A stretch of 64,000 bases of DNA, taken from the NCBI GenBank assembly GCA_963721815.1, contig CAVRLO010000024.1, positions 422,234 to 486,233 on the forward strand, given 5' to 3'. The stretch's first letter is position 1; each line of letters starts with the position of its first letter. Positions 5,685 to 59,852 of the stretch are shown here, one piece after another. The notes under the pieces are model-generated. The model was not told the DNA's origin and did not search any database. It was given only the letters and a program-made list of their open reading frames with translations. Source of the DNA: an uncultured Candidatus Rokubacteria bacterium (GTDB taxonomy: Bacteria; Methylomirabilota; Methylomirabilia; Rokubacteriales; CSP1-6). The position numbers were made by a program, and so were the translations under genes.

Positions 5685-5697
5685 GGGAGGCAGCATC

Positions 5698-6519: not shown

Positions 6520-6545
6520 TCCGTTACGATCCGAAGAGGCGACAC

Positions 6546-15022: not shown

Positions 15023-15125
15023 GCGGCGGCACGCGCGCTCGCGCGATCGGGCGTATCGCCCGATGTTCTCGCCCGTTGACTGATCGCCAGCGACATCCGA
15101 ACCCGCGCCTCGCCCGTAGCTTTCG

Positions 15126-15488: not shown

Positions 15489-15535
15489 CCGTGTACCGCA
15501 ACACAACCGAGGTCAACCAACGAAAGGAGCGAGTG

Positions 15536-16204: not shown

Positions 16205-16241
16205 CAGACGGCCGATAAAGGCCCATCCGCAACGTTCATTC

Positions 16242-16262
16242 GGGGGGCCCCGACGGCCCCCT
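16242..16262 (+). terminator. GC-rich hairpin (GGGGGCC-N5-GGCCCCC) after the lipoprotein gene
   Basis: inverted repeat seen directly; no U-tract. Confidence 0.35.
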
Positions 16263-19815: not shown

Positions 19816-20283
19816 TCAAGTCGTAGCCGCGGCGCGCCTCGCCTCGCGCAGCCCGGCGAGGATCGCATCGCGATCGAGGCTCATTTCCATCAGCGCGACC
19901 TGGGCCTCGTACACGTCCGCCGGCACCTGGTCACGCACCTCGGGCTCGAACACGTGAAACACAGGGAGCCCCAACGGGACTCCGGCCAACGGGCCCGCGT
20001 AGGAAGGATCGCCGGCGACGACGGTCTGGGCGAGCGTCTGCGTGCTCTCGGCGTCGGGGGTCCCGAGCAGGACCACCACGCCGCTGCCGTGCTCGTCCGC
20101 GATTCGCTTCACCGCCGCTTGATCCTCCAGGCCCATGGCGCCCGCCGCCGTTCAGACGTAGCAAGCGGTCAGGGTCAGCACGACGTCGGCGCCAGCGCGG
20201 CTCGCGCATTCCGCGACCGCGGGGCCCGGCACGCCGTCGCGCTCGCCGAGCGCGATGACCTTCTTGCCTCGGAGATCCATCAT
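19816..20283 (-). CDS. grdA: glycine/sarcosine/betaine reductase complex selenoprotein A (GrdA); UGA (Sec) at 20152..20154
   Basis: '[61 protein letters not shown]' matches the GrdA CxxU context; ATG overlaps the GrdC-like stop (ATGATG/TGA). Confidence 0.8.
20152..20154 (-). other. in-frame UGA, predicted selenocysteine codon of GrdA
   Basis: conserved position 44 in the 'CYVU' motif. Confidence 0.75.
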
Positions 20284-21734
20284 GTCGCTCCTTTCGCTCC
20301 GTTGCGCTCCAGGACGAGCGAGAGCCCGTCGGGGAGCTGCGTCATCCGTCCAAGAAACAGACTACCCTTGCCCGCGAACATCGTGCGGGTGAGGCGGCCC
20401 TCCGTGAGCCCGCGCCGCGCGTGGCCGAGGTACGGGATCGCCGAGGCGATGTGCCCCTGGGTCGGCGAGAATCCCGGCATGCCGCGCGTACGAACGAAAT
20501 CGTCGATGCCCTCGCGAGCGATCAGCTTCTCGACGACGGCCAGGCTCGCCAGGGTCCGGTAGTTGTTGAGCGGGACGTTGCCGCTGCCGGCGGGCTCGGT
20601 CGCTTCGGGGTTGTGCAGCTCGAGCGAGAAGCGGTCGACGTCGAGCAACGTGAGGCCGACCCGCCCGAGCGGCTCGCTGTAGAGCGATTTCACCACCGCG
20701 AGCGGGGCGGAGCCCGAGCCGACCTCGTGGCGGCCGATCGCGTCGAGCCGCAGGGTGGGCGAGACGCCGTCGTCGCGCGAGACGTGAACGGCGAAGCCGG
20801 CCAGGACGTCCTCGACGATCGGCATCGCGTGCTTCAGGTGGCCCTGGAACTTCATCCCCAGCTTGGCCAGCGAGCCGCCCGCCACCACGACCACGTCGTC
20901 GTGCAGGCCGCTGCGGACGAGCGCGCCGGCCAGCATCAGCGCGTGCATCGGCCCGCAGCAAAACGCCTTGATGTCGCTGCCGGTCGCGCGCGCGCAGCCG
21001 GCCCACTCCGCGACCGCCTTGGCGACGTTGCCGCCGCCCCGCTGATAGCGGTCGCCGACCGCCTCCTCACCGCAGTTCATGACGTAGCGCACGTCGGCGG
21101 CGGCGATCGCGCCGGGGCGCGCGAGCAGGTGACGCAGCGCCATCGCCGCGGTCGCCTTGCACGCGAGGTTCTCCAGCAGGACCTGGCCGGTCAAGGTGTC
21201 GTCCTCGTCGTGGCCCGGCAGCATGGCACCCAGGAGCCGTCCGTCCACCCCGACGATCGGCAGCGCCCGATGCCTCGCGATGCGCTCGTCGAGCAGGGCC
21301 TCGGTGACCCCGGCGCGCACCGGAGGGCGGCCGGACTCGCGACCAACTATGGGATGCGCGTCGAGCGCCGCGCGCGCGCGGTCGGCCAGGTCACGCTCGA
21401 GGGCCAAAAGGTCGAAGCCATCCGAGGCCGCCAGCAGGCCGAAGAACTCGTGCTCGGGCATGATCTCGCCGTCGGGCCCGAAGCGGCTCGCGGCTTCGAT
21501 GGGATGGCGATGCCACGGGACCGGCCGGGCGGCGAGGTCGTCCACGCCGACATTGCCGATGAATACCTGATTGGGCGCGTAGGTGCGCGCGGCGTCCCAG
21601 TCGCGCAGATGGGGCCGCAAGTACTCGATCGGTTTCTCGACCTCGCGCAGCACGCGCAGCGGCTTCGAGCCCAGGCGCACGAGGCTCGGCACGTGCGCCA
21701 GCACGAGGGAGACCGCGCGGACAACGGGCATGTC
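20280..21734 (-). CDS. GrdC-like protein (glycine reductase complex component C beta-subunit-like, thiolase/FabH-fold)
   Basis: ~485 aa; coupled to grdA; start chosen at '[18 protein letters not shown]' (ORF runs to 21767). Confidence 0.55.
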
Positions 21735-21763
21735 GCTCGAAGGCATGCGAGTCACGCGAGGCA

Positions 21764-22629
21764 TCATACCCTCTGGCCGGCTCGCAGCGCACGGTAGCGG
21801 GCAGGCGTGAGGCCAAAAGCCGATTTGAACGTTCGGGTGAGGTGCGCCTGGTCGGCGAAGCCCACCTCGTACGCGACCTCGATCAGCGGACGCCCGCGAT
21901 GAATCAGCTCGCGCGCGGCATCGAGGCGGCGCATGAGCAGATACCGGTAAGGGCTCGTGCCGAACATGAGCCTGAACTGGCGGGCCAGGTCGTAGCGGGT
22001 CAATCCCGTGACCGACTCCAGCTCGTCCGAGCGAACCACGCGCGTTTTCGCGGCGTCCAGAAACCGGCGCGCGCGCTCGGCGGCGACGGCGTCGACCCGT
22101 CTCGAGGCCCCGGGAGGTTCCCCTGCGTGCTCCGCGGCGAGCAGGCCGTCGGCCAGATCGACGACGAGACTGGTCGCCGCCAGCGATTCCAGCGGGAGCC
22201 GGAAGGCGGCGTCGAGCGCGCGGGCCAACCGGGTGTTCGCGGACACCGGGTCACGTACGAACGGCAACGGACCGGGACGTCCACGGAGGGTCCGCACCGC
22301 CTCGGCCAGGTGGGCGGGCTCGACGTAGACGATGCGGTATCCGAACCCCTCCTCGGTGCCCGCGCGGCCGTCGTGGGCTTCGTCGGGGTAGAGCACGACG
22401 ATCTGTCCCGGGGTACTGACCCGTGTGGCGCCCCGGTAGTCGAAGACTTGGGCTCCGCGGTCGGTCAGGCCGATCGCGTACGTGTCGTGGCGGTGCTTCT
22501 GGTAGGCGACGCCGCCGAACCAGGCGCGAAACAGCTCGACGCCCTCGGCCGGGTTCGTGCTGGTGACCCAGCTTCGGGTCGCGCGCGTGCACGATCGTTC
22601 AAGACCCTCGCCGCCCGATGTGGTCTCCT
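21764..22629 (-). CDS. AraC-family transcriptional regulator (cupin N-domain + HTH)
   Basis: C-terminal 'YRYLLMRRLDAARELI...EVAYEVGFADQAHLTRTFKSAFGLTPARYR'; GTG start proposed at 22629. Confidence 0.6.
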
Positions 22630-23263: not shown

Positions 23264-23944
23264 CTACCGGCTCCCCACCGGGCTTTGGCCGGCGATCTGC
23301 GCCGTCTCGGGCGACAGCGGAATCACACCGCCGGGCTCGCCGGCCAGGATCCAGTCGATGAGCAGGCGATAGCGATCCGTCGGCACGGCGCCCACCAGCG
23401 AGAGCTTCTCGTTGAGGACGACGGTCGGCAGGCCCGACACGCCGAACCACGCGGCGCCCTCGGCGCAGTCGCGCAGCACGGCTTCGTAGGCCTCGCCGGC
23501 GTAGTCGGCCTCGAAGCGCGTCGGATCGAGCGCCGTTTCGCGGATGAGGCTGCGCAGCACCTCCGGGCGCGAGATGTCGAGGTTGTCGCGGAAGTGCGCG
23601 GTGAAGAGCCGCTCGTGGAATCGCTCGAACGCCGCGTCACCCTGGAGCTCGGCGCACTTGGCGGCCGTCAGCGCCGGCACGCTCGAGGACGGCAGCGGCG
23701 TGTCGATCTCCGGCGGCACGAAGACGGCGCGAGGCTCCTCGGCGCCGACGCGCTGCCGCCCTTCGCGCGTCTTCTGGGTGACGCGCCGGTCGGGCTGCTC
23801 GCCCGGGATCAGCGGGAAGGTCCGCCAGTGGAGCCGGATACGATCGCCGTAGGTCTGCTGGATCTCGCGCAGGCGCACCGCGGCGTTGTAACACCAGGGA
23901 CACAAGTAGTCAGAGAAGACGTCCACGCGGACCGGCGCGGTCAT
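23264..23944 (-). CDS. DsbA-like (FrnE-type) thioredoxin-fold oxidoreductase with CPWC motif
   Basis: 'VDVFSDYLCPWCY'; ATG overlaps the GrdB-like stop (ATGA). Confidence 0.7.
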   Translation of the reverse strand: MTAPVRVDVFSDYLCPWCYNAAVRLREIQQTYGDRIRLHWRTFPLIPGEQPDRRVTQKTREGRQRVGAEEPRAVFVPPEIDTPLPSSSVPALTAAKCAELQGDAAFERFHERLFTAHFRDNLDISRPEVLRSLIRETALDPTRFEADYAGEAYEAVLRDCAEGAAWFGVSGLPTVVLNEKLSLVGAVPTDRYRLLIDWILAGEPGGVIPLSPETAQIAGQSPVGSR

Positions 23945-25264
23945 TCGCGCGTGAACACCGTGGGCCGCGCCACCTCGGTGCGCAGCGCCTGGAGCGCCTG
24001 CTCGACGATGCGCCGCCGCAGCGCCTTCTCGTCCTCGGGCGAAAGATCCGCGCTGCCCAGGGGATGGATGATCCCCGCGGCCGACACGATGCGATTGGCG
24101 CCGACCATCACCGCCACCGGCGTCATGGTCGAGACCTGCACCGTCGGTAACCCCGCGCGCTCGAGCTCTCGCGTGATCGCTGCGCCGCAGCGAGTGCTCG
24201 TCCCTCAGGTGGAGGTGAGGATGACGGCGTCGACGCCGGCGGCGCGCAGCTTCTCCGCGATCTCCCGCCCCATGCGCGCGCTCTGGGCCAGGGTGGTCGC
24301 GACGCCGACGGTCGAATAGACCGTCTCGTGGAGCTTGCCGATCGCGCCGCTCTGCTCGAGCTCGCGCGCGACGTCCACGGGCACCAGCCGATGCGGATCC
24401 TGCTTTACCCACGTGGTGTCGTAGCCGCGATGCGGATTGTCGTACTGGGTCGCGTCGAGGCTCGACTTGCCCTCGATGCTGTAGGCGCCGTAGCGGGTCG
24501 CGTTCAGGGCCTCGATCCCGTCGGGGTTGCCTTGCGGGACGAGACCGCCGTCGGTGACGAGCGCGATCGTCGCGCCCTCGAGCGTCTTGATGAGCCGCGG
24601 CGCCGCGACGGGCGGGAACGCCGGCCTCGGCACCTCCGTCGCGAAGGCCCGGCCGCCGAGCTTGTCGAGCAGCATGGCCACGGCGCGATCGGCGGCGCTG
24701 GCGCCGGCGACGACGTTGCGGGTGACGCCACGGGCGAAGTAGCCGTGAGCGGCCGGGCTGCCGAGCGCCTCGCCGCGCGCGAGCTTCAATCCGAGCCCCA
24801 CGAGCCGCTGCACCTCCGGGAGCATCCGCGTGGCTTCCGCGCCGGTCTGGACGACGTAGACCTGGCGGCGATAGAGCTCGACGCCGGGATTCTCGGCGTG
24901 CATGCCGGTCACGGTCGGAATCTTCAGCTCGGCTTGCACCGCGGCGCAGAGCGCGCCGCACGCGACGCCGTAGCGGCCGGCCAGGAACGCCGGGCCCGGC
25001 CACCAGGAGATCGGGCCGCGCCGCGGCCACCAGGCGCACCAGCTCGGCGGTCGCGCGCTCGGCCTGCTCGGCCGCGTAGTTGTCGCCGCAGATCACCGTC
25101 GCGACGACCGTGCCCGCGTCGCCGAGCGCCTGCTGGACGGCGCGCGCGGCCCCGACGGCCCCGTCCGCGACCTGGGGCCCGACGCCGGCCTTCTCCTCGC
25201 CGCCGAGCTGGCCGAAGAACTGGTTGAGGTAGCAGACGACTCGCAACGTCTCGGCCGCCATCAC
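23941..25264 (-). CDS. GrdB-like selenoprotein (glycine/sarcosine/betaine reductase component B family), paralog 1; UGA (Sec) at 24205..24207; apparent +1 frameshift near 24990
   Basis: N-terminus 'LRVVCYLNQFFGQLGGEEKAG' (ORF 23264..25264 frame); middle 'AFLAGRYGVACG...GVDAVILTST' then TGA then 'GTSTRCGAAITRELERAGLPTVQVSTMTPVAVMVGANRIV' (ORFs 24205..24939 and 23941..24141 share a frame). Confidence 0.7.
24205..24207 (-). other. in-frame UGA, predicted selenocysteine codon of GrdB-like paralog 1
   Basis: 'ILTST-U-GTSTRC' context; CGCTGC-GGC-GCAGCG hairpin downstream. Confidence 0.7.
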
Positions 25265-26523
25265 CGCACCTCCGCCATCACTCTGGTTGTCCCGACCTGC
25301 TCGATCGCGCCGCAGAGCCCGCCGTACGTGACGCGAGTCTCGCCCAGGAGCTTCGGCGCCAGATCATCGGCGCCGATCACACGGTCCATCGCCGGCAAGG
25401 TGAGCGGCTCCTGGCTGCTCCCGACGTTCACGAGCGCGTCGACCCCTGGAAAATCGAAGAGCAGCATGCCCTCGGCGCTGCCGTCGGTCGACATGTCCTC
25501 GACGACCGCCGTCGTCTTCACGCCCAGCGCCTCGCACTGCGAGGCCGCCTGCGCCATGTCGACGTGCGGGGCGCCGCCGCCGATCTTGGTGAGGACGGCG
25601 CCGTCGGCGCCGAGCGTGTGCGCGACGAGCCCGGCGGTGAGGAACGCCGAGCGTACGCGCTCGGGCTCGGTCGCCTGCGCGACGGTGACGACCACGCCCG
25701 CGAACCAGAGCGTGCGGCCGTGCTGCGCGTAGAGCGCCCTGATCATCGGATGATTCTGGGTCGCCCACGTGGTCACGCTGCGGCCCATGAAGCCCCGGAG
25801 CACGGCGCCGTCGAGGACTTCGTTCGGGTGCACGATCGTCGGCAGCATGCGACGCACCGGATCGCCGTAGAGGATTCCCTCGTCGAGGCCCGTCGGGCGC
25901 TGGTGCGAGTGGATCTGGAAGACGTAGGCCACGCGCGGCAGATGCGCGAGCTCGGCGGGAACGCGCGGCGAGGGCGGCAGCTCGAACACCTCCACCCGAT
26001 CGGGCGCGGCCTCGTGCGCGGCCCGGGCGAGGTGCACCGCGGCCTTCAGCGCGGCGAGCCGCACGGCGGCCAGATAGTCGGAGCGCTCGGTGCCCGGCGA
26101 GGGCCAGGCCGAAATTACGAGGTTGTGCGTGCGGCCGAACGCCGAGAGCGCCGCGTTGGGGCCGGCCATGTCGATCACGGCCAAGGTGCCGACGTTGTCC
26201 GTCTGCTGATCCGTCGCGACGACCGCCACGCCGGCCAGCGCCGTCGTCCGCCCGTGGCCGGCGCGCCCGACGCCGCCCAGGACGCCCGGGAAATCCTCGC
26301 CGCCGTCGACCTTCGCCCGCGGCGCGATCACGTCGAACACCCGACCGATGCGGCAGCGCTCGCCCGGATGCGCGAGGTCGAGGCGAATCCGGGCGAGGCG
26401 CGAGTCGGCGGACAGGAGCTCGCGCAGCTCGTCGAGATCGACCTCGAGCCGCTTGCCCACCAGACGCGTGACGGGCGCGGCCACGAGGGCGTCCACGTCG
26501 GACCAGCGTAGCTCGAGTCGCAT
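25261..26523 (-). CDS. GrdE-like proprotein (component B alpha/beta subunit family), paralog 1
   Basis: 420 aa from 'MRLELRW'; homologous to the 41055..42395 product; the longer ORF extension to 27126 is an artifact. Confidence 0.6.
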   Translation of the reverse strand: MRLELRWSDVDALVAAPVTRLVGKRLEVDLDELRELLSADSRLARIRLDLAHPGERCRIGRVFDVIAPRAKVDGGEDFPGVLGGVGRAGHGRTTALAGVAVVATDQQTDNVGTLAVIDMAGPNAALSAFGRTHNLVISAWPSPGTERSDYLAAVRLAALKAAVHLARAAHEAAPDRVEVFELPPSPRVPAELAHLPRVAYVFQIHSHQRPTGLDEGILYGDPVRRMLPTIVHPNEVLDGAVLRGFMGRSVTTWATQNHPMIRALYAQHGRTLWFAGVVVTVAQATEPERVRSAFLTAGLVAHTLGADGAVLTKIGGGAPHVDMAQAASQCEALGVKTTAVVEDMSTDGSAEGMLLFDFPGVDALVNVGSSQEPLTLPAMDRVIGADDLAPKLLGETRVTYGGLCGAIEQVGTTRVMAEVR

Positions 26524-26531
26524 GGCGGCGG

Positions 26532-27509
26532 CTACGCGAGCAGGCTGCGCAGCTCGGGGACGACCCAGAGCGGCGACCGCCCGGCTTCCATGCGCTGGAT
26601 GTTGTCGAAGCCGTTTCGATATGCCTTCGTCCAGTTGTCCCACGTCGGTCCGGCGCTGTGCGGCGTGAGCGTGACGTTCGGCAGCGAGAACAGCGGGTGA
26701 TTCTGCTTGGGCGGCTCTTCGACCATCACGTCGAGGCCGGCGGCGGCGATCGTGCCCGACGTGAGCGCCCGGTGCAGCGCGTCCTCGTCGACGACCGGGC
26801 CGCGGCAGGTGTTGATGAGGATCGCGCTCTTCTTCATCATCCCGAGCTCGCGCGTCGAGATCATCTTGCGGGTGACGTCGTTCAGGGGCACATGCAGGGT
26901 CACCACGTCGGACGTGCGGAGCAGCTCGGTGAACAAGGTGAAGCGCACGCCGAGCGCGTCTTCCTGGTCCTCGGTGAGCCGGAGGATGTCGTAGTAGCGC
27001 ACGTCCATGTCGAAGCCCTGGACGCGTCGCGCGACCTTCTTGCCGATGTTGCCGAGGCCGACGATGCCCAGGCGCTTGCCCTCGACCTCGTAGGTGCGGT
27101 TCTCGGCGAAGTCGGCGACGCGCCACTTGCCGGCGGCGACGTTGTTGTGGTGGTACACGAGCTTCTTGAGCACGGCGAGCATGAGCATGACGGCGTGCTC
27201 GGCGACGGCCACCGAGTTGGCGCCGCCGTTGTTGGCGACGGGGACCTTGGCCTTGCGCGCGGCCTCGACGTCGACCCGGTCGTAGCCCGCGCTGGTCAGC
27301 TGGATCAGCTTGAGCTTGGGCGCGGCGCGGAAGAACTCGTTGCCGATGCCGGTGCGCGGCGAGCCCAGATAGTACTCGGCGTCGGCGGCCTTGTCGTAGA
27401 ACTCGGGCTTACCCGGATCGACGACGACCAGCTCCATGCCGGGCGGGAGCAGCTCGCGCGCGATGTCCATGACCGGGGCGGGTTGGGGCGGCGTGAGGAT
27501 CTTGGTCAC
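26532..27509 (-). CDS. D-isomer-specific 2-hydroxyacid dehydrogenase (NAD-binding)
   Basis: 'GIVGLGNIGKKVARR' Rossmann motif; 325 aa; first gene of the grdE/grdB-like operon. Confidence 0.8.
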   Translation of the reverse strand: MTKILTPPQPAPVMDIARELLPPGMELVVVDPGKPEFYDKAADAEYYLGSPRTGIGNEFFRAAPKLKLIQLTSAGYDRVDVEAARKAKVPVANNGGANSVAVAEHAVMLMLAVLKKLVYHHNNVAAGKWRVADFAENRTYEVEGKRLGIVGLGNIGKKVARRVQGFDMDVRYYDILRLTEDQEDALGVRFTLFTELLRTSDVVTLHVPLNDVTRKMISTRELGMMKKSAILINTCRGPVVDEDALHRALTSGTIAAAGLDVMVEEPPKQNHPLFSLPNVTLTPHSAGPTWDNWTKAYRNGFDNIQRMEAGRSPLWVVPELRSLLA

Positions 27510-27568: not shown

Positions 27569-28904
27569 ATGGCCGACGAGGACTCCTCGGATCTCGGCGC
27601 CCGCGCGCGGCTGGAGGCGGCCTTCGCGCGGGAGGAGCGCCGCGGATTGATGCTCGCCGCCGCGGCGCGCTCGGCGGCGGTGGCGGTGATCATCGTCTGG
27701 CTCGCGCTGGCGAACCCCGACACCGGCCGGGCCTATCTGTGGACCCTCGGCACGGCGTGCTTCCTTCTCGTCACCGGCCTGGCGCAGTTCTGGCTCTACT
27801 GGCGACAGCTGGCGCCTCCGATCGTTCCCTACGCCTTCGTCCTCGTCGACTCGCTGGCGCTGGCGGCGGCCATCCTCCTTCCGAATCCGTTCGACACGAT
27901 GAACCTGCCGCCGGCCCTGCCGCTGCGGTACGCCTCCTTCATGTACTTCTTCGTCCTCCTCATGCAGGCCGCCTTCTCGTTCCGGCCGCGACTGCTGCTC
28001 TGGACGGGGTTGAGCGGCGTCGTCGCCTGGACGCTCGGCTTTCTCTGGATCGTCACCCGGCCCGAGACCATCGTCCTTCCGGGCCGCGGCCGCGCCGCCC
28101 AGCTCCCCGTGTACTTCGATCGCAACTTCGCCTCGCTGATCAAGTTCGAGAACGAGATCATCGTGTTCTTACTGGTGAGCGCCGGGCTGGCGCTCCTCGT
28201 CCGGCGCTCGCGCTCGCTAGTGGCCGAGCGGGCGGCGGCCGAGCGCGCCCGCGGCAACCTGGCCCGTTACTTCTCGCCCAAGGTCGTGGACACCCTGGCC
28301 GAGCGCGACGAGCCGCTGGGCCGCGTGCGCCGCCAGGCGGTCGGCGTGCTCTTCGCCGATCTCGTGGGGTTCACGACCATGGCCGAGGACATGACCCCTG
28401 AAGAGGTCATGGCGTTGCTGCGCGATTTCCACGGCCGGATGGAAGAGGTGGTGTTTCGCCACAACGGCTGCCTGGAGAAGTTCATCGGCGACGCCCTGCT
28501 GGCGACGTTCGGTGTCCCCGAGATCGGCCCGCGCGACGCCACCGACACGCTCGCCTGCGCGCGCGCCATGCTGGCCGCGCTGCATGCGTGGAATCAGGAG
28601 CGGACGGCGGCTGGGCTATCGGGTCTGCACATGGGGCTCGGCCTGCATTACGGCCAGGTGGTAGCCGGCGACATCGGCAGCCGACGGAGCATGGCCTTCG
28701 CGACGGTGGGCGACACCACCAACGTCACCAGCCGCCTGCAGGCGCTCACCCGGGACTTGCGCACGAGCATCGTGGCCAGCGGCGCGCTCGTCGCCGCCAT
28801 CGAGCGGGAGGCCGCCGACGTGAAGCTGCTCGCAGGGACTGACCTCCCGCGGCCCGCACGCCCTGCGCGGGCGCGACACGCTCATCGAGCTGTGGGCGGA
28901 GTGA
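27569..28904 (+). CDS. membrane-anchored class III adenylate/guanylate cyclase; apparent frameshift near 28850
   Basis: multiple TM segments then 'VLFADLVGFTTMAE...FIGDALLATFG'; native C-terminus 'HALRGRDTLIELWAE*' lies in another frame. Confidence 0.65.
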
Positions 28905-28933
28905 GGGAAGCTCTGTCCGGGGGAGGAGCTGCC

Positions 28934-30052
28934 GTGGTCTCGACGTTCGCCGCGCTCGTGCTGGTGGCGGTGGTCGCATTCGCCGGGGAGGCGCCGCGAT
29001 CGCCGAACCCGAAGCACAGCCGGCTGCCCGCGCGTCAGGTCGATGTCGCGCAAGGGCTCGAGCACCCCTGGGGACTGGCGTTTCTTCCCGACGGTGGCCT
29101 GCTCGTCACCGAGCGCGCGGGCCGGCTCCGGGTCGTGGACCGCAACGGTGTGCTGTCGGAGCCGCTCGCCGGCGTCCCCCAGGTCCGCGCCGGCGGCCAG
29201 GGCGGGTTACTCGACGTCGCGCTGAGTCCCACGTTCGCTCAAGATCGGCTCGTCTATCTCTCGTTCTCCGAGCCGGGCGAGGGCGGTGCCGGCACCGCTG
29301 TGGCGCGTGGGCGGCTCGGCGAGCGCGGGCTCGAGGACGCCCAGACGATCTGGCGCCAGCACCCGAAGGTGGGCGGAGGCCTTCACTGGGGCTCTCGGCT
29401 GATGTTCCGCTCGGACGGCACGCTCTTCGTCACGCTCGGAGACCGGGGCTCGCGCGACTACGCTCAGGATCTCTCCACCACCATCGGCAAGATCGTCCGG
29501 ATCAACGGCGATGGTACGATCCCGCGCGACAACCCGTTCATCGGTCGCTACGGCGTCCGGCCGGAGATCTGGTCGTACGGCCATCGCAACGCGCAGGGGG
29601 CCGCGCTCGACGCGCGCGGACAGCTGTGGACCATCGAGCACGGCGCCCGCGGCGGGGACGAGGTGAACCACCCGGAGCCCGGCCGCAACTACGGCTGGCC
29701 CATCATCAGCTACGGCGTCGACTATTCCGGCGCCAAGATCGGCGTCGGCACCACGCGGCCGGGCATGGAGCAGCCGGTCTACTACTGGGATCCGGTCATC
29801 GCGCCCTCGGGCGCGACGTTCTACAGCGGCGACGCGTTTCCCGACTGGCGAGGCGACCTGCTGATTGGCTCGCTGAATCCCGGCGGCCTCGTGCGCCTGA
29901 GACTCACCAACGGTCGCGTCGCCGGTGAGAGCCACTACGTGATCGATCCCGGCGAGCGCGTCCGCGATGTACGGCAAGGGCCGGACGGGATGATCTACGT
30001 CCTGACCGACAATTCCCGCGGTCGCATCGTCCGTCTCGAACCGTCGCGATAA
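28934..30052 (+). CDS. PQQ-dependent soluble sugar (aldose/sorbosone) dehydrogenase, secreted
   Basis: SD GGGGGAGGAG then GTG; signal peptide; 'HPWGLAFLPDGGLLVTERAGRLRVV'; previously merged into an 827 aa ORF. Confidence 0.65.
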   Translation: MVSTFAALVLVAVVAFAGEAPRSPNPKHSRLPARQVDVAQGLEHPWGLAFLPDGGLLVTERAGRLRVVDRNGVLSEPLAGVPQVRAGGQGGLLDVALSPTFAQDRLVYLSFSEPGEGGAGTAVARGRLGERGLEDAQTIWRQHPKVGGGLHWGSRLMFRSDGTLFVTLGDRGSRDYAQDLSTTIGKIVRINGDGTIPRDNPFIGRYGVRPEIWSYGHRNAQGAALDARGQLWTIEHGARGGDEVNHPEPGRNYGWPIISYGVDYSGAKIGVGTTRPGMEQPVYYWDPVIAPSGATFYSGDAFPDWRGDLLIGSLNPGGLVRLRLTNGRVAGESHYVIDPGERVRDVRQGPDGMIYVLTDNSRGRIVRLEPSR

Positions 30053-35484: not shown

Positions 35485-35527
35485 GGTTCGATCTCCTCCG
35501 TTGCGATCCACCGAGCCCAGGGGACCG

Positions 35528-36248: not shown

Positions 36249-36430
36249 GGTGATCCTCCTCCGCGCCACCAACCGTCAGGGCGCCCGTACGCTGCAGGCA
36301 TCGCCGGAGAGCATATCTCCCTCGACCTCGGCGGAACAGCCCCGGGGCAGTGTCGCGCCGCCCTTGCTCACTCGTTGTGTTGGCGCTACGGTTGCCCCAC
36401 GATTCGGGCCGGCGGTTCGCGGGAGGCGCA

Positions 36431-37189: not shown

Positions 37190-37416
37190 AGGACGGCCCC
37201 GATGAGCGGGGCAGGTATTGAAGCGCTTGACAACGCCACGGCGGAGACTACCATCCGCCACGAAGGGTAGGGTAACTCTCCACGCATCGACGGCTGATCG
37301 CTTGAGGTGTCCCGATGCGATCAGGTGCTTGTTCCTGCAGATCTGACACCTTTCCCGCGCCTGTGAGCGGGCAAGGTCCCTCCGCGAAAGGTCCCTCCGC
37401 GAAAGGAGAACCTGCG

Positions 37417-39015
37417 ATGCGAGCTCTCAAGGTGGGCGCGATTCTCTTGAGTGTCGTGATGCTCGTGGGCCTCTGCGCTGCTGCCCAGGCCATGGCCCAG
37501 GAACAGCCTCGTCGCGGAGGGGTCTTGCGGGTGGCCCTGGCCGCCGATCCCCCCAGCCTGGACGCGCACCAGGAGCAAACCTTCGCGGTGACCCAGCCGA
37601 TGAGCGCCATCTACAACAACCTGATCGTCATCGACCCTCACAACTATCCCAAGGTCGTCGGGGATGTGGCGAAGTCCTGGAAGGCCTCGGGCGATTACCT
37701 GACCTACACCTTTACGCTACACGAAGGGATAAAGTTCCACGACGGCAGTGAGTTGACCGCGGCGGACGTCAAGGCCAGCTGGGACAAGGTGGTGTTTCCC
37801 GCGGGGGGCGTGATCAGCCCACGGCGGGGGAACTATCAGATGATCAAGAGCATCGAGGCCCCCGACCGCTCCACCGTGATCTTCCGCCTGCACCACGCCT
37901 CGCCGCCGTTCCTGACGCACATGGCCCACCCGGCCAATTTCATCTATCCGAAGAAGTATCTCGACACGGATCCCAACTACTTCAAGACCAAGGCCGTGGG
38001 GAGCGGGCCGTTCAAGCTGAAGAGCTACGTGCGGGGCTCCTACGTCGAGATGGAGCGCAACCCCGACTATTGGAAGAAGGGGTTGCCCTACCTGGACGGG
38101 ATCACGTACTTCATCATCACCGACACCTCGGCCCGGACCACCGCCTTGCGATCGAGTCGCGTCGACACGGAATTGCGCTTTCTTCCCCCCGTGGACGTCG
38201 ACGCCATCAAGCAACAGCTGGGCGACAAGATCGTGGCCGCCAAGATTCAGAACATCGGGACGTTCGGCGTCACGGTGAACGCGAGCAAGAAGCCATTCGA
38301 CGACGAACGGGTCCGCAAGGCCCTGACGCTGGCCATCGATCGCTACGACGCGGTCAAGACGCTGTCCCCGATCACCAACCTGGAATTGATCGGGGGCATC
38401 ATGCACCCGGACAGCCAGTGGTCGTTGAGCCCGGCGGAGCTGGAAAAGCTCCCGGGCTTCGGCCGGGACCACGCCGCCAATCTGCGCGAAGCCAAGCGAT
38501 TGCTGGCGGAGGCCGGCTTTCCCAATGGCTTCAGGACCGTGCTGACCAACCGCAACATCAAGATGCCGTACATCGATCTCGCGGTCTACGTGATCTCGTC
38601 GTGGAAGAAGATCGGTGTGGAGGCCGAGCACAAGGTCGAGGAGACGGCCACCTGGAGTCAGAGCCGGTTGAACCGGGAGTTCGCGCTCCTCGTGGACCCC
38701 TACGGCTCCACGACGGTGGGAGACCCCGACGAGATGCTGGACAAGTTCGTCACCGGGCAGCCGGAGAACTGGGGCCGCATGAGCGATCCCGTGGTCGACG
38801 ACCTCTTCGCGCTGCAGTCGAAGGAGATGAACGAAACGAAGCGCATCCAGCTGGTGAAGCAGATGTCCAAACGCCTTCTGGAGAAAGCCTGGCGGATCGA
38901 GGGGTTGTGGACGACTCGCCTCGAGGTGCGCACGGCCCGCCTGCGCAACTACGAGCCACTGCCCAGCCACTGGAACAATCGACGCTTCGAGGATGCGTGG
39001 CTGGCGTCCAAGTGA
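37417..39015 (+). CDS. ABC transporter substrate-binding protein, family 5
   Basis: signal peptide; SD AAAGGAGAA; 533 aa. Confidence 0.8.
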   Translation: MRALKVGAILLSVVMLVGLCAAAQAMAQEQPRRGGVLRVALAADPPSLDAHQEQTFAVTQPMSAIYNNLIVIDPHNYPKVVGDVAKSWKASGDYLTYTFTLHEGIKFHDGSELTAADVKASWDKVVFPAGGVISPRRGNYQMIKSIEAPDRSTVIFRLHHASPPFLTHMAHPANFIYPKKYLDTDPNYFKTKAVGSGPFKLKSYVRGSYVEMERNPDYWKKGLPYLDGITYFIITDTSARTTALRSSRVDTELRFLPPVDVDAIKQQLGDKIVAAKIQNIGTFGVTVNASKKPFDDERVRKALTLAIDRYDAVKTLSPITNLELIGGIMHPDSQWSLSPAELEKLPGFGRDHAANLREAKRLLAEAGFPNGFRTVLTNRNIKMPYIDLAVYVISSWKKIGVEAEHKVEETATWSQSRLNREFALLVDPYGSTTVGDPDEMLDKFVTGQPENWGRMSDPVVDDLFALQSKEMNETKRIQLVKQMSKRLLEKAWRIEGLWTTRLEVRTARLRNYEPLPSHWNNRRFEDAWLASK

Positions 39016-39038
39016 GCCGGCGGGGCTAGGTAATCGCC

Positions 39039-40016
39039 ATGTGGCGATACATCCTCAAACGTCTCCTCCTGATGATTCCGACCTTGCTCGGGGTGGCCCT
39101 GGTGGTCTTCCTGCTCATGCACGTCGTGCCCGGGGATATCGCCCTGTTGATCCTGGGCGCGGGGGAGCAAGGCGGCGACGTCAACCTGTTCGAGCTCGAG
39201 CGCCTGCGAGCCAAGCTGGGGCTCGACCGCCCGCTGTACGCACAGTTCTTCTCCTGGGTCTGGGGCATCGTCTGCCTGGACTTCGGCAACTCCCTGTGGA
39301 CCGGGGCGCCGGTGATCGAGGAGCTGTGGATTCGTCTCCCCTTGACCCTCGAGATCGCCCTCTTTGCGACGCTGGTTTCCACGGTGATCGCCATCCCGCT
39401 GGGCACACTGGCGGCCATCCGTCAGGACACCTGGGTGGACTACGGCGTGCGCCTCGTCAGCATCGGCGGCCTGGCGATCCCGAACTTCTGGACCGGCATC
39501 CTGCTCATCCTCTTTCTCGTCATCTACTTCCAGTGGAGCCCGCCGCTGGTGTTCGTCCCCCTCTGGGCGGACCCGTGGGAGAACTTCAAGCAACTGTTCT
39601 GGCCCATCGTCACCGTGGGCTACCGCAATGCGGCGGTGAGCACGCGCCTGACCCGCTCGGCGGTGCTGGAGATCATGCGGGAGGACTACATTCGCACGGC
39701 CTGGGCGAAGGGCTTGCGCGAGTTCATCGTGGTGGCCAAACACAGCCTGAAGAACGCCATGCTGCCGGTCATTACCATCATCGGCGCGGAGCTGGCCTTC
39801 CTGATGGGCGGTCTGGTGGTCACCGAGACCGTCTTCACCCTGAACGGGCTGGGCCGCTTCATCGTCGAAGCCATCCTGCGTCGAGATATCCCGGTGGTGC
39901 AGACGATGGTGCTGCTGACCGCGTTCTTCATCGTGTTCGTCAATCTGATCGTCGATCTACTCTATGCCTGGCTGGACCCCCGGATCAGCTACAGCACCGC
40001 GAAGACCGGTCGCTGA
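39039..40016 (+). CDS. ABC transporter permease (DppB/OppB type)
   Basis: 325 aa with 6 TM pattern and EAA-like loop. Confidence 0.8.
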   Translation: MWRYILKRLLLMIPTLLGVALVVFLLMHVVPGDIALLILGAGEQGGDVNLFELERLRAKLGLDRPLYAQFFSWVWGIVCLDFGNSLWTGAPVIEELWIRLPLTLEIALFATLVSTVIAIPLGTLAAIRQDTWVDYGVRLVSIGGLAIPNFWTGILLILFLVIYFQWSPPLVFVPLWADPWENFKQLFWPIVTVGYRNAAVSTRLTRSAVLEIMREDYIRTAWAKGLREFIVVAKHSLKNAMLPVITIIGAELAFLMGGLVVTETVFTLNGLGRFIVEAILRRDIPVVQTMVLLTAFFIVFVNLIVDLLYAWLDPRISYSTAKTGR

Positions 40017-40028
40017 GGAGATAGACAG

Positions 40029-40952
40029 ATGGCCGTCATCCGTGAGGGGCCGCTACCGTTCACGACCCCGCAGCTGAAGGCCGCTACGGGCGGGAGGCGC
40101 TGGGCCGGCGCGCAGGCCGCGGTCCGCAAGTTTGTCGTCACAAAACCGCTGGGGGCAGCCGGTGGCGCCATCATTCTCTTGATGGTGCTCATCGCCATCT
40201 TTGCCGATGTCCTCGCCCCCTACGATCCGCATGCGATCAATCAGCGCCTACAGTTCACGGCCCCGAGCCTGAACCACTGGTTCGGCACCGACGAGTTCGG
40301 TCGGGATCTGTTCACGCGTATCGTCTACGGCGCGCGCATCGCCCTGTTCATCGGCCTGACCGCCGCCTTCGTCGGCGCGACCTGTGGAGCCATCCTGGGC
40401 GTCGTCAGCGCGTATCTCGGAGGCAGAGTGGACCTGTACCTGCAGCGCATCATCGACGTGTTGCTCGCGTTTCCGCTGCTCATCCTCGCGCTGGCGATCG
40501 TCACCGTGCTGGGCCGTTCGGTTCCCAACGTGGTGATGGCCATCGCTATCCCCATCATTCCGCGCACCGCTCGCATCGTCCGCTCCAACGCGCTGAGCAT
40601 CAAAGAGAACATGTACGTCGAAGCGGCCCGCTCCGTGGGGAGCTCGCATCCGAAGGTGATCCTGCGCCATATCATCCCCAACGTCATGGCGCCGTACTTG
40701 ATCATGCTGACCGCCCAGTTCGGGAACGCCATCCTCGTGGAAGCCTCGTTGAGCTTCCTGGGGCTGGGGACCGCCGAGCCCACGCCGTCGTGGGGGCTGA
40801 TGCTCTCCGGCAGCGCGCTGTCGTATGCCGAGAGGGCGCCGTGGGTGGCCGTCTTCCCCGGCATCGCCATCAGCCTGGCGGTGTTCGGCTTCAACCTCTT
40901 CGGCGATTCGATCCGGGACGCCCTCGACCCCAAGCTCCGCCACCACAAGTGA
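40029..40952 (+). CDS. ABC transporter permease (DppC/OppC type)
   Basis: 307 aa. Confidence 0.8.
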   Translation: MAVIREGPLPFTTPQLKAATGGRRWAGAQAAVRKFVVTKPLGAAGGAIILLMVLIAIFADVLAPYDPHAINQRLQFTAPSLNHWFGTDEFGRDLFTRIVYGARIALFIGLTAAFVGATCGAILGVVSAYLGGRVDLYLQRIIDVLLAFPLLILALAIVTVLGRSVPNVVMAIAIPIIPRTARIVRSNALSIKENMYVEAARSVGSSHPKVILRHIIPNVMAPYLIMLTAQFGNAILVEASLSFLGLGTAEPTPSWGLMLSGSALSYAERAPWVAVFPGIAISLAVFGFNLFGDSIRDALDPKLRHHK

Positions 40953-41054
40953 GGGCATCGCATCAGCAGAAGTTCTCGCCCGAGAGCGTGATCTCGACGA
41001 AGCTCCTGGAGGAGGCCGATCCCGCGCTCGTGAAGTGGAACTCGAAGACCGAGG

Positions 41055-42395
41055 TCAGGTGAGCGGCGCTCGGGGGCCGTCTACTCGATGCAGCTCAAGC
41101 TGCTGAAGCCATAGTGGTCGTCGTACCGCCACGGCGGCGGGAGCGGCCCCGCCGTCGGCAGCGCGGCGCCGTCCACGCCGCCATGAAGCCCGATGGTCGA
41201 GCCCCGCCGCACGATCTTCGTGGGCGCGCCGATCACGCGCGAGACCGCGGGCGCTTCGGGCACGGCCAGGGTGACGTTCTTGAAGAAGCTCGTGCTCACG
41301 ATCGCGTCGGCCTCGGGCAGGGGCTCGAGCATGGTGGGCGCGCCGTCGGTCGCGTCGTCCTCGCTGGTGAGGAACACGGTCTTGATGCCGAGGCGCTCGC
41401 ACGCCTGGATGCTGCGCACCACCTCGATGAACTCGTTGCCTCCCGCGTCCCACGTGACCACGGCGCCCTGCGCGCCGAGCTGGCTGGGCGAGCTTGGCCG
41501 TCTGATTGGCCATCAGCTGCTTCTCGGTTTGCGTGGTCCACTCCGTGCGGAGCGAGATGACGCCGAGGAAGTTCCAGTCGCGGCCGTGGCGGCGGTAGAG
41601 GTCGAGGAAGAGCGGATTGTTGGCGACGGTCCATGACATCGCGAACGCGGTGCGGTAGGGGCCGGTGAGCGCGCCGTCCAGGATCTCGTTCGGGTGCAGA
41701 TACCACGGCGGCGTGAGCTGGGTCAGGCCGTACGTCGCCGTGCAGAACGCCGAGGGTGATGCCGACATCGCCTGCGGCGAGTGCACGCACCAGATGTAGA
41801 CCACCTTCGGGAGCTCCGGATCCACCGGCGTCAGCTCGAAGACCTCGCGCTCGGGCGGCGTGAGCGCGCGCACCGCTTCGCCGAGCTGGTCGGCGACGGT
41901 GAGCGCCGCCTTGTGCACGGCGTAGTTCTTGACCTCTTCGTTCAGGCTCGAATCGGGCTCGACGACCAGGCAGAGGTTCAGGAGCTTCTGGTAGGGGTAC
42001 ATCTCGCCGTAGTGGCCGGACATGTCGAGGTACGTCTCGACGAAGTCGCCGCCGGCGTCGTGCCAGTTGACGCTCGACACCTCGACGACGCCCATGCCGG
42101 CGAGGCGATGCGTGCGGCCGTCGCCCACCGTGGCGATCTCGCGCCCGCAGATGCCGGGATAGCAGACGCCGGGCCCCTCGACCTTGACGCGCGGCTCGAT
42201 CACGTCGCGCACCGGCCAGATCCGGACCGACTCGCCCGGCTTCGCGATCTCGAGCCCGGCGCTCGCGATCCGCGGATCCTGGCGCACCGCCTCCAGCACC
42301 GCCTCGCGGTCCACCGTGAGCCGGCCCGCGTCGTAGCGCGTCGTTCGCCCGAAGACGATGTCCGTGACCGGGAAGGTGCCCATCTCAAGACGCAT
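41055..42395 (-). CDS. GrdE-like proprotein, paralog 2; apparent +1 frameshift near 41495
   Basis: N-terminal ~320 aa in the ORF 41055..42395 frame; C-terminal '[27 protein letters not shown]...' in the ORF 41081..41461 frame; homologous to paralog 1. Confidence 0.55.
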
Positions 42396-43734
42396 GAGCC
42401 GCCTCCTCAGTCTTACCTGGCGCCATAGGGTCGAAGAGCGTCGGCCCGGGCACGGCGATCGTCAGGGTCTGGAGCGCGGTGGTCACGATGCGCATACCGA
42501 AGGCGTAGTCCTTCTCCGGGCTCAAGGTCGGGTCGCCGCACACGTGCTCGATGCGCGCGCCGCGGATCACGCGGTTCGCGCCGGTCGTGAGGGCGAAATT
42601 GTAGATGGCCGAGATCATGCCGACGGGGATGCCGACTCGCTCGATCTCCTTGGCTATCGTTGCGCCGCAACGATTGCAGGTTCCTCAGGTGGCGACCAGC
42701 AGGGCCCCGTCGACGCCGCCGGCCTTGAGGTCCTGGGCGATGCTGCGGCCGTGCCCGGCCGACACCGCCACCGGCGTGCTCACGCCGGGCAGCGCGTAGA
42801 TGTGCTCGTGGACGCGGCCCACCTTGCCCTGGCGCTCGAGATCGCGCAGGAACGAGAGCGGCAGGATGTAGTTCGGGTTGCTGTTGACGAGATGGTTGAA
42901 GTAGCCGGCGTGGTAGGCCTCCCATTCGGCCGGCGAGAGCGACTCGAGCTCGGTCACCGTGTGCCGGTGATAGCGCACGGCGTTCGCCGAGACCTGCCGG
43001 TCGGGGTTGCCTTTGCGGACGAGCCCGCCGGTCGTGACCATCGCGATGCGCGCGCGCGAGAGGTCGGCGATCGGCGCCGCCGGGGCCACGCGCTCCGGCG
43101 CCGCGTAAGGCACTTCCGACCGAAAGGGCCGGCCGTGGAGCTTGTCGAGCAGCATGTCGAGCGCGCGCTGATAGCCCGGTCGCCCGCGGTCGTGCACGCG
43201 GCGCGTGCCGCGAGGCATGTAGCCCTCCACCTCGGACGGCCCCAGCGACTCACCGCGGCCCAGGCGCCGCGCGAGCGGGGCCAGCGCGTCGAGCGCGGCC
43301 TGCATCGACGTCGTCGACGAGCCCGAGGGCACGATGTAGATCCCGCGCCGCGCGCCCGAGGCGCCCGGATTTTCCGGATGCATCGCCGTGATCGCGGCAA
43401 TGCGCAGCCCCTGGGCCACCTTGCAGGCGAGCGCGCAAGCCAGGCCGTATCGCCCCGATCCGAACGCCGGACCGGCGACCAGCACGTCGGGCTTGATGCG
43501 CTCGAGCTCGGCTGCGATCGCGCGCGCGGCTTCGGCTTCGCTTTCGCTCGCGAAGTTGTCGCCGCAGACGATGGTCGCCTCGACTCGCGCGCCGTCGCCG
43601 AGCGCCTTCTCGAGCACGCGCCCCGGGCCGACGGCTCCGGCTTGCACGGACACGCCGACGTGCGCCTGATCCTCGCCGCCGATGCCCCCGAAGAACTGGT
43701 TCACGTAGTGCACGACGCGAAGCGGACTGCTCAT
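42385..43734 (-). CDS. GrdB-like selenoprotein, paralog 2; UGA (Sec) at 42685..42687; frame intact
   Basis: '[18 protein letters not shown]' N-terminus; '[10 protein letters not shown]' then TGA then '[30 protein letters not shown]' (ORFs 42685..43734 and 42385..42618 share a frame). Confidence 0.75.
42685..42687 (-). other. in-frame UGA, predicted selenocysteine codon of GrdB-like paralog 2
   Basis: 'VAT-U-GTCNRC'; ATCGTTGC-GGC-GCAACGAT hairpin starting 13 nt downstream. Confidence 0.75.
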
Positions 43735-43812
43735 GGTGTCGCCCCTCCCGAGCCGATCTGTCGCTGGGGGATTCTAACTCCGCCCGGGGTGGCCGTGTCG
43801 TATTCTCGACCC

Positions 43813-58316: not shown

Positions 58317-59852
58317 GTGAGCAGAAAGGTACTCGTCTCCTTCCTGTTCTTCGTCGTTGGACTTTCGGGTGGAACGGTCAGCGGTCAGAGTCAGCCGGAT
58401 GGCCAGCTCACGATCGCGTTCGACGCATCGATCGCGACGTCGTTTCTCGATCCGGCCGAGACACCGGGTATCGGCACTCCCTTCGTGTTCCTGTACGCGA
58501 TGCACGATGCGTTGATCAAGCCGCTGCCCGGCAACAGCATGGCGCCTTGCCTCGCGGAATCGTGGACGGAAAGCGCCGATGGGCTCGTGTACGAGTTCAA
58601 GCTGCGCGAGGGACTCAAGTTCCACAACGGCGATCCGTTCACGGCCGAAGATGTGAAGTTCAGCTTCCAGCGTTACAAGGGTACGGCCGCGAAGCTGCTG
58701 CACGATCGTGTGAAGTCGGTGGACATCGTCGATCCGCATCGCATCCGCTTCGTTCTGAGCGTGCCGTGGCCCGACTTCCTCGTGTTCTACGCGACGCCCG
58801 CGACCGGCGCCGCCTGGGTCGTGCCGAAGAGGTACATCGAGAAGGTGGGCGAGGATGGTTTCAAGCGTCACCCCATCGGGCTCGGGCCCTATCGATTCGT
58901 GCGGATGACGCCCGGCGTCGAGCTCGTGCTCGAGGCGAACGAGCAGTACTGGCGCAAGAAGACAACGATCAAGAGCATCACGATCAAGGGCATTCCCGAT
59001 CGCACGACGCGCCTGGCGATGCTGAAGACCGGCGAGGCGGATCTCGCCTACCTGATGATCGGCGTCGAGGCGGCGACGGTGAAAGCGGACCCAAAGCTCC
59101 GACTGGCCAAGGTGATCGCCGCGGCCACCTGGTGGCTCGAATTCCCCGAACAGTGGAATCCCAAGTCTCCGTGGCACGATCGCCGCGTACGGCTGGCGGC
59201 GACGTTGGCCGTGAACGCGCAAGCGATCAACGAAGCCGAGCGCATGGGCTTCTCGCGCCTGACGGGATCGATCATCCCGAGCGTGCTCGACTACGCGCTG
59301 CGCATCGAGCCGTATCCCCACGATCCGGCCCAGGCCAAGCGGCTCCTCTCCGAGGCGGGCTATCCCAACGGATTCGATGCCGGCGAGTTCCGTACGACGA
59401 GCGAGTTCAGCTCGTTCGGTGAAGCCGTGGCCAACTCGCTCGCCACGGTCGGCATCCGCACGCGCGTCCGCCCGCTGGAGCGCGCGACGTTCTTCGAGGT
59501 CTGGAAAGCGAAGAAACCGACGGGCGTGATCCTGGCCGCGACGGCCGCCCTTGGTAACGCGGCGACCCGCCTGGAAGCGTTCGTCATCAGCGGGGCGACC
59601 TACGCGTACGGCGGCTATCCCGACATCGACGACCTGTTTCTGCAACAGGCGCGCGAGCGCGACCGCAAGCGGCGCGAGGCCCTGCTGTATCAGATCCAGA
59701 AGCTGATGCACGAGCGTGTCATGCACGCGCCGATCTTCGAGCCGGCCACGCTGCACGGCGTCGGCCCGCGGCTCGAAGAGCCGGCGGTAGGCTTGAACTC
59801 GCTCCTCTACTTCGCCGCGCCGTACGAGGAGATGCGGCTGAGAAAGCAGTGA
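58317..59852 (+). CDS. ABC transporter substrate-binding protein, family 5
   Basis: GTG start with signal peptide '[15 protein letters not shown]'; ORF 58281..59852. Confidence 0.75.

Follow-up and report, generated by a model that had tools for sequence, protein, structure and literature searches.

A conserved protein B module of the glycine reductase family, probably for a non-imine substrate, in Candidatus Rokubacteria and other uncultivated bacteria

Grd-type selenoenzymes are the textbook Stickland enzymes of anaerobic Firmicutes, with glycine, sarcosine, betaine, D-proline and, more recently, fluoroacetate as substrates, and in the clostridial system grdD is considered necessary for the formation of acetyl phosphate. 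Here we analyzed a stretch of 64,000 nucleotides (hereafter, the window) from an uncultured Candidatus Rokubacteria bacterium (contig CAVRLO010000024.1, positions 422,234 to 486,233), which encodes two pairs of GrdB-like and GrdE-like subunits. The second of these, grdB2-grdE2 (pair 2), is the subject of this study. It belongs to a conserved, uncharacterised clade and probably codes for the protein B module that confers substrate specificity on a selenoenzyme of the glycine reductase family, for which a non-imine substrate is likelier than glycine or sarcosine.

Among the described systems, glycine reductase protein B (Clostridium sticklandii / Peptoclostridium acidaminophilum) belongs to the same Pfam families as pair 2, namely PF07355 (GRDB) and PF09338 (Gly_reductase, the family of GrdE, GrdG, and GrdI). 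Like pair 2, it carries selenocysteine (Sec) in a UxxCxxC motif with a selenocysteine insertion sequence (SECIS) element directly downstream, and its partners are GrdA (CxxU) and GrdC. The reference locus for this enzyme, L064, reads grdX-trxB-trxA-grdE-grdA-grdB-grdC-grdD, whereas in pair 2 grdB comes before grdE and overlaps it. Moreover, GrdE2 lacks the SGN/C self-cleavage site, GrdB2 fails the glycine-type motif, no grdD, trxA/B, or grdX lies nearby, and the hosts are Rokubacteria and their allies rather than Firmicutes. Betaine reductase GrdH/GrdI (L067 16986-18278, 796 bits against a cut-off of 775) shares with pair 2 an E-type subunit without the cleavage Cys, as well as GrdA and GrdC, and GrdI, described as unprocessed, fits a substrate that is unable to form a Schiff base. 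However, the GrdH model gives GrdB2 just 375 bits against its cut-off of 775, the two proteins belong to different superclades, and their gene orders are opposite; GrdI keeps the second Cys (MPC), whereas GrdE2 has none and is three residues shorter at this site, and no betaine transporter adjoins pair 2. Fluoroacetate reductase FarB/FarE of Cloacibacillus porcorum (PMC10838667; NF053623) is a Grd-family pair for a non-amine X-CH2-COO- substrate and feeds shared GrdA and GrdC. FarE, like GrdE2, is devoid of both processing cysteines, but the FarE model, whose cut-off is 675, gives GrdE2 no more than 130 bits, FarB has no CxxC after Sec where GrdB2 retains it, and the far operon includes its own antiporter and radical S-adenosylmethionine (SAM) genes. 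The D-proline reductase subunits PrdA/PrdB are distant homologues (TIGR04483, 71 bits on GrdB2; TIGR04480, 27 bits on GrdE2; both far below the cut-offs), with a much shorter PrdB, a pyruvoyl-forming PrdA, and a system that has neither GrdA nor GrdC.

Its domains, Sec, SECIS element, and GrdA and GrdC partners place pair 2 within the Grd protein B superfamily, and the cut-offs and motifs that it misses place it outside the GrdB, GrdF, GrdH, and FarB/E equivalogs. In one respect, the predicted lack of processing of its E-type partner, it resembles GrdH/GrdI and FarB/FarE most closely. A prediction made earlier by a model from the letters of this DNA (the original prediction) had drawn a parallel with the glycine, sarcosine, and betaine enzymes of Eubacterium acidaminophilum; the parallel holds best for the betaine enzyme GrdH/GrdI and breaks down for the glycine and sarcosine enzymes, whose pyruvoyl Cys is absent here.

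Selenocysteine signals and the E-type subunit of pair 2

The window has a GC content of 63-73% in 2-kb steps. Pair 2 comprises the following features.

42385..43734, minus strand: GrdB2, selenoprotein B-like subunit (ATG at 43734, stop TGA at 42385-42387; 449 amino acids, Sec at residue 350)
42685..42687, minus strand: Sec codon UGA (motif U-G-T-C-N-R-C, UxxCxxC retained)
42647..42684, minus strand: SECIS element (Rfam RF01990 SECIS_4, 42.5 bits against a gathering threshold of 38), directly 3' of the UGA
41484..42395, minus strand: N-terminal part of GrdE2, about 304 codons in the original frame (open reading frame translation)
41482..41483, minus strand: extra C that shifts the GrdE2 frame, a base missing from every orthologue, including that of the 96-98% identical contig L085
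41081..41483, minus strand: C-terminal part of GrdE2, about 133 codons in the shifted frame, with the true stop TAG at 41081-41083
41643..41666, minus strand: GrdE2 residues 244-251, TGPYRTAF, aligned opposite SGN/CVSAC and without Cys
41742..41744, minus strand: Cys218 of GrdE2, part of an insertion particular to the clade and located 26 residues before the canonical site

Translation of grdB2 is interrupted only by the in-frame TGA at 42685-42687, which lies in the context LLVAT-U-GTCNRCG. The protein scores 381 bits against Pfam GRDB (cut-off 22) and 420.8 bits against NCBIfam TIGR01918 (cut-off 65.45), the latter spanning residues 6-434. The core hairpin of the SECIS element, AUCGUUGC-GGC-GCAACGAU, begins 13 nt past the UGA with an 8-bp consensus helix, and the element is the only gathering-level Rfam match in the whole 64 kb. 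Among orthologues, the hairpin AUCGUUGC-GGN-GCAACGAU is almost invariant, synonymous sites included; its helix shows one compensatory change (U-A to C-G, in Dehalococcoidia) and one wobble change. All B2 orthologues retrieved, from Rokubacteria, Binatia, Entotheonella, and Dehalococcoidia, retain the in-frame TGA and the Sec motif. The intact GrdB-like frame through the UGA that had been proposed for this locus is therefore borne out by translation, the GRDB domain, the SECIS element, and conservation among orthologues.

None of the substrate-specific models accepts GrdB2. It falls below the equivalog cut-offs for glycine GrdB (TIGR01917, 366 of 602 bits), sarcosine GrdF (NF040794, 404 of 800 bits), and betaine GrdH (NF040795, 375 of 775 bits), and the control proteins exceed theirs (L068 GrdF, 806 bits; L067 GrdH, 796 bits). 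The published motif of glycine-type GrdB proteins, GPxF[NF]AGRYG ... AHGGxD[QTAP] ... RV[IL]PxD ... TxGNxTxV (PMC9751293), fails in four of its six parts in GrdB2, which has for example HAGYF for HGGxD; the L064 and L067 controls pass. The Dehalococcoidia glycine reductases reported in the same paper were filtered on this motif. A sequence search of PDB chains returned no homologue of GrdB2 or GrdE2 at E <= 0.01 and hence no template for their structures. A scan for tRNA-Sec revealed no tRNA gene of any kind in the window, and sel genes were not searched for. A scan for sigma-70 promoters and intrinsic terminators at 40900-43900 found none and is uninformative in this high-GC lineage.

The start codon of grdE2 (ATG, 42393-42395) sits 11 nt inside grdB2 and is preceded by a GAGGAGG ribosome-binding site. 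The GrdE-like gene indeed follows the GrdB-like gene with an 11-nt overlap, as predicted, but its 3' end had been set at 41055, which is the stop of a wrong frame: the open reading frame 41055..42395 is a chimera of two frames, and past codon 304 or so it continues as Arg-rich, out-of-frame sequence. DNA alignment to orthologues locates the extra C at GCCCAG[C]CAGCTCGG, around 41482/41483. Once the frame is repaired, GrdE2 is a protein of 437 amino acids that scores 283 bits against PF09338 over residues 1-391 and shares 98% identity, at 100% coverage, with the intact protein P0001 (a cluster of 755 members). In contig L085, which has the same gene neighbourhood at 96-98% nucleotide identity, grdE2 is intact, and the extra C is the only gap over 2.1 kb. 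The C-terminal part in the shifted frame shows no damage and matches intact orthologues at about 98% identity. Since the base is absent from all orthologues and similar frameshifts interrupt unrelated genes, we read the extra C as an assembly error and not as biology. Programmed frameshifting was considered and rejected on the same two grounds.

Canonical GrdE proteins (L064, L067, L060) read DGAIISGN/CVSACDKNPTY at the processing site, where the Cys that follows the Asn becomes the pyruvoyl group (Bednarski et al. 2001, as cited in PMC10838667). GrdI and FarE are described as unprocessed proteins and not as proproteins (PMC10838667), and GrdI, as the partner of a bona fide GrdH, reads SGSFMPC at this position. 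In GrdE2 and all of its orthologues, the region is three residues shorter and both conserved Cys are missing. The best 120 clusters of GrdE2 are all at least 74% identical, and 118 of their 120 representatives keep the Cys-free motif. GrdE1, the E-type subunit of the other pair, reads LRGFMGRSVTTW at the pyruvoyl site and is also without the precursor Cys. A lack of the conserved Sec and pyruvoyl-site residues had been named as grounds for refuting the original prediction. The Sec is in place (TGA and SECIS), and the pyruvoyl-precursor Cys is missing from both E paralogues in the alignment, so that the prediction is partly refuted on its own terms. GrdE2 is probably not self-cleaved, and because the pyruvoyl-forming Cys is missing from both paralogues, a classical glycine or sarcosine (Schiff-base) mechanism seems unlikely. 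Given the strong conservation of the clade, the missing Cys does not argue for a loss of function.

A clade with grdB before grdE

Scanning species-representative genomes with GrdB2 yielded 79 loci, with orthologues that are 57-93% identical and come from four phyla. Identity to GrdB2 by group is as follows.

Candidatus Rokubacteria / Methylomirabilota: mostly 84-93%, a few divergent members 73-75%
Binatia: 66-77%
Entotheonella: 64-70%
Dehalococcoidia / Chloroflexota: 57-59%

Every orthologous locus that reaches beyond grdB2 has grdB followed by grdE, and in frameshift-free assemblies the grdE2 orthologue is one unbroken gene of 429-437 amino acids. In a neighbour-joining tree of the GrdB-like proteins from all loci, the B-then-E pairs form one superclade, with members from Rokubacteria, Binatia, Entotheonella, Dehalococcoidia, other Chloroflexi, Acidobacteria, and Terriglobia. 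The E-then-B pairs form the other, which holds canonical GrdB, one GrdF (806 bits), two GrdH (796 bits), and GrdB1 of the window. As all B-then-E pairs group together in the tree, this order is a fixed character of the clade and not a local rearrangement; the reversed order noted in the original prediction is real, but it is shared by a whole clade and is not peculiar to this locus. The clade is further marked by TGPYRTAF in the E subunit, by grdC and grdA usually adjoining the pair, and by the absence of adjacent grdD and thioredoxin genes.

The window encodes the following partners and the other pair.

19816..20283, minus strand: GrdA, selenoprotein A (Sec TGA at 20152-20154 in C-Y-V-U; GRDA, 191 bits; NF040748, 193 bits against a cut-off of 130)
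20280..21767, minus strand: GrdC, protein C beta subunit (NCBIfam NF040746, 588 bits against a cut-off of 450)
23941..26523, minus strand: paralogue 1, GrdE1 (26523..25261) followed by GrdB1 (25264..23941)

As had been proposed, two protein B-like complexes are accompanied by a single grdA and a single grdC in the window. Relatives likewise have several pairs per grdC-grdA, with three B-then-E pairs around one grdC-grdA in Dehalococcoidia (L027, 4628-17922, and L045) and two in Acidobacteria (L038 and L042). Multiplicity of substrate modules is therefore common within the B-then-E clade, which supports the proposal that A and C components are shared. The actual sharing of GrdA and GrdC by both pairs is something that we only infer. 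The expected co-occurrence with grdC-grdA was confirmed in relatives: in Binatia, Entotheonella, and several metagenome contigs, grdB2-grdE2-grdC-grdA is a contiguous operon, with an occasional single inserted gene such as one for a rhodanese or an S9 peptidase. In four Rokubacteria loci (L010, L012, L033, and L034), both pairs are adjacent, in the order B2-E2-(binding protein)-2-hydroxyacid dehydrogenase-E1-B1-DsbA.

In the metagenome relatives L080 and L081, the inserts lie at 11308-13359 and 14914-16257 (L080) and at 5339-8095 and 11374-12219 (L081). An S9 prolyl-oligopeptidase-type or rhodanese gene is found between grdE2 and grdC, a Pyr_redox_2 flavoprotein gene adjoins grdC, and a gene for a fusion of an ADP-forming acetyl-CoA synthetase and an acetyltransferase lies upstream. 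One may speculate that the flavoprotein and the synthetase fusion could replace the functions of thioredoxin reductase and GrdD.

A tblastn search of the window with the GrdD, TrxA/TrxB, and GrdX proteins of L064 gave no match. Where the loci come from Firmicutes or Fusobacteria, grdD is the gene immediately following grdC; it was not found within 10 kb in any non-Firmicute locus. In non-Firmicute loci (e.g., L016, 12647-14734), grdC is followed by grdA, without grdD, trxA/B, or grdX within 10 kb. This grdC-grdA arrangement may represent a GrdD-independent variant of protein C.

When the flanking open reading frames were clustered all-against-all, recurrence across phyla was limited to the B, E, C, and A genes and to a formaldehyde-detoxifying dehydrogenase in four Entotheonella/Binatia loci. 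This enzyme, S-(hydroxymethyl)mycothiol dehydrogenase (TIGR03451, 658 bits against a cut-off of 513), has its gene beside grdB2 in four loci, three from Entotheonella and one from Binatia, and in the rokubacterium L001 its gene lies 5 kb from the grdB2 orthologue. It is a weak hint of a link with N-methyl or one-carbon metabolism. Its positions are as follows.

L021, 5821-6975: S-(hydroxymethyl)mycothiol dehydrogenase
L022, 2-979: S-(hydroxymethyl)mycothiol dehydrogenase
L023, 8666-9982: S-(hydroxymethyl)mycothiol dehydrogenase
L024, 7273-8388: S-(hydroxymethyl)mycothiol dehydrogenase
L001, 3656-4750: S-(hydroxymethyl)mycothiol dehydrogenase

The hosts of the B-then-E clade are, to our knowledge, not known as Stickland fermenters. 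We found no paper joining Grd with Rokubacteria, Entotheonella, SAR202, Tectomicrobia, Binatota, or Methylomirabilota, and no published description of the clade, an absence that is no proof in either case. Public annotations of its members vary between glycine reductase and sarcosine reductase.

Proposed mechanism and alternative readings

By homology with the glycine, betaine, and fluoroacetate reductases, we propose that GrdB2 acts through Sec350 in its UxxCxxC motif, with GrdE2 as its translationally coupled partner. The B2/E2 complex would hold an X-CH2-COO- substrate, and the selenolate of Sec350 would attack its alpha-carbon and expel X. The resulting carboxymethyl group would be transferred, as a selenoether, to Sec44 of the single GrdA, and GrdC would then handle it as an acetyl thioester. 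Because no pyruvoyl carbonyl can form at the canonical site, a non-imine substrate is favored over glycine or sarcosine. Our best guess is a compound that needs no imine activation, either a betaine-like N-methylated glycine derivative or another compound with a good leaving group.

Several points weigh against this assignment. In principle, GrdE2 might instead be processed at Cys218, a residue particular to the clade. No conserved BCCT/OpuD-type betaine transporter gene or methylamine-utilisation gene adjoins the pair, and GrdB2 is no nearer to GrdH than to GrdF or GrdB in model scores (375, 404, and 366 bits, respectively). The frameshift in the grdE2 sequence may, as a formal possibility, be a real mutation. 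Finally, grdD was not found in the window or in the non-Firmicute flanks, and the downstream chemistry may differ from that of the clostridial enzyme.

We put forward a bolder proposal only tentatively: the B-then-E clade, found among others in marine and groundwater Dehalococcoidia, could be a selenium-dependent carboxymethyl-transfer reductase for a substrate new to the family, using GrdA and GrdC without GrdD or a dedicated thioredoxin system. Its substrate may be a quaternary or tertiary N-methyl compound, a sulfonium compound, or another non-imine. If so, its end product and energy coupling would differ from acetyl-phosphate formation of the Stickland type. Another possibility is that pair 2 is an ordinary protein B of glycine or sarcosine reductase, serving glycine catabolism or a reductive-glycine route, with the carbonyl provided from elsewhere, for example by Cys218, whose insertion is conserved. 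Public annotations give orthologues these names, the top NCBIfam scores go to sarcosine GrdF and GrdG, and the lack of a dedicated transporter fits an intracellular metabolite such as glycine. We nevertheless consider this reading unlikely: the equivalog cut-offs are widely missed (366 of 602, 404 of 800, and 226 of 780 bits), most parts of the glycine-type motif fail, and both Cys of the processing site are gone. Position 218 is Cys in about 96% of the roughly 100 cluster representatives matched by pattern and Gly in four of them, which led us to downgrade a relocated pyruvoyl site at Cys218.

The remaining alternatives concern the neighbouring transporter and the integrity of the genes. The original prediction had suggested a possibly peptide-derived substrate, which would be imported by an adjoining ATP-binding cassette (ABC) transporter with these genes.

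37417..39015, plus strand: family-5 substrate-binding protein (Pfam SBP_bac_5, 270 bits)
39039..40016 and 40029..40952, plus strand: two Opp/Dpp-type permeases (Pfam BPD_transp_1, BPD_transp_1_N, OppC_N)

The described layout is correct: Pfam identifies the binding protein and two permeases, pair 2 converges on them with about 130 nt between grdE2 and the permease genes, and no ATPase gene lies near the transporter, the only ATPase motifs in the window being those of LivG/LivF near 55-56 kb (scan for Walker A and signature motifs). The same layout is found in L085. In addition, Opp-type components or lone family-5 binding proteins are encoded near B-then-E pairs in L012, L033, L034, L043, and L049, and L080 has an S9 peptidase gene between grdE2 and grdC. 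On balance, a peptide-derived substrate seems improbable. The transporter adjacency is common only to the window and L085; no close homologue of the transporter was found in the Rokubacteria/Methylomirabilota loci retrieved from genome contigs, and flank clustering revealed no transporter family conserved next to the pair across phyla. In L002, L003, L004, L009, and L086, whose GrdE2 orthologues are 93-95% identical (95% in L086), a dienelactone hydrolase gene follows grdE2 instead, within a conserved aroC-B2-E2 synteny. Three family-5 binding-protein genes within 64 kb also make a high background, so that adjacency by chance is likely. The genes are convergent and not co-transcribed, and an X-CH2-COO- substrate is needed if GrdA and GrdC are used.

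It is equally improbable that grdE2 and grdB1 are real pseudogenes of Grd systems being lost. Each carries a 1-nt insertion as sequenced, but the window has at least 11 single-base frameshifts in unrelated genes, six repaired proteins give full-length domains, and beyond the insertion grdE2 matches its intact orthologues and L085 as described above. As for the two pairs being recent or assembly duplicates, the chance is negligible: identity is 45% between GrdB1 and GrdB2 and 35% between GrdE1 and GrdE2, the pairs fall in different superclades with opposite gene orders, and each has separate orthologues in other genomes. The divergence of the paralogues, for which a check had been proposed, is thus confirmed.

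From a biological perspective, the locus matters beyond this window, as it represents a large and strongly conserved sister clade carried by uncultivated phyla of soil, groundwater, and sponge symbionts. With no pyruvoyl site and no grdD nearby in this clade, its genes are probably misread by metabolic reconstructions that count them as glycine reduction or as part of the reductive glycine pathway. These organisms may have a substrate or a downstream route that is yet to be discovered.

Flanking genes and frameshifts in the window

In the relatives mentioned above, the dienelactone hydrolase gene carries a Tat signal and abuts or overlaps the end of grdE2. In the window, this gene lies about 5.5 kb further on, at 34549-35536, and the intervening block (35537-41057), shared with L085, contains an Amdase-family gene, a SAM methyltransferase gene, and the genes for the binding protein and the two permeases. 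Since relatives have the hydrolase gene directly at grdE2, the block looks like a lineage-specific insertion. The other two family-5 binding-protein genes, at 17005..18357 (minus strand) and 58329..59717 (plus strand), encode proteins 27-28% identical to that of 37417..39015. The window has no Opp-type permease genes elsewhere, and one extra binding-protein gene lies about 1.5 kb downstream of grdA. In L012, L033, and L034, a lone family-5 binding-protein gene is located between the two Grd pairs.

Codon-usage Viterbi segmentation revealed at least 11 frame switches on the same strand and without a stop codon at the junction. The frameshifts amount to about one indel per 6 kb and lie near positions 243, 10590, 24990, 28831, 35742, 41483, 52612, 55538, 60537, 60625, and 61679. 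Unrelated genes are affected, namely those for an esterase, an amidohydrolase, an adenylate cyclase, an Amdase-family protein, a LivK-like binding protein, LivG, an amidase (two frameshifts), and an NMT1-like protein. The six frame-merged proteins, which cover seven junctions, each yield one full-length Pfam domain across the junction. grdB1 is also frameshifted, by an extra G near 24990. The window looks like part of an error-prone, likely long-read assembly, and gene calls or pseudogene claims made from it need frame repair first. An apparent fusion of adenylate cyclase and dehydrogenase, the 827-amino-acid open reading frame 27569..30052, is an artefact.

A Guanidine-II riboswitch match inside grdC (21508..21549, minus strand; 18.8 bits against a gathering threshold of 32, E = 1.9) is most likely due to chance. 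In the first pair, the Sec TGA of GrdB1 (24205-24207) lies in U-G-T-S-T-R-C, with a sub-threshold SECIS_4 match at 24165-24204; the first Cys of UxxCxxC is missing from GrdB1, a loss also described for FarB. Locus 1 (23264..27509, minus strand) encodes a D-2-hydroxyacid dehydrogenase, GrdE1, GrdB1, and a DsbA-like CPWC protein, an arrangement kept in L010, L012, L033, and L034, and the nearest relatives of its pair are deltaproteobacterial and Syntrophorhabdales pairs.

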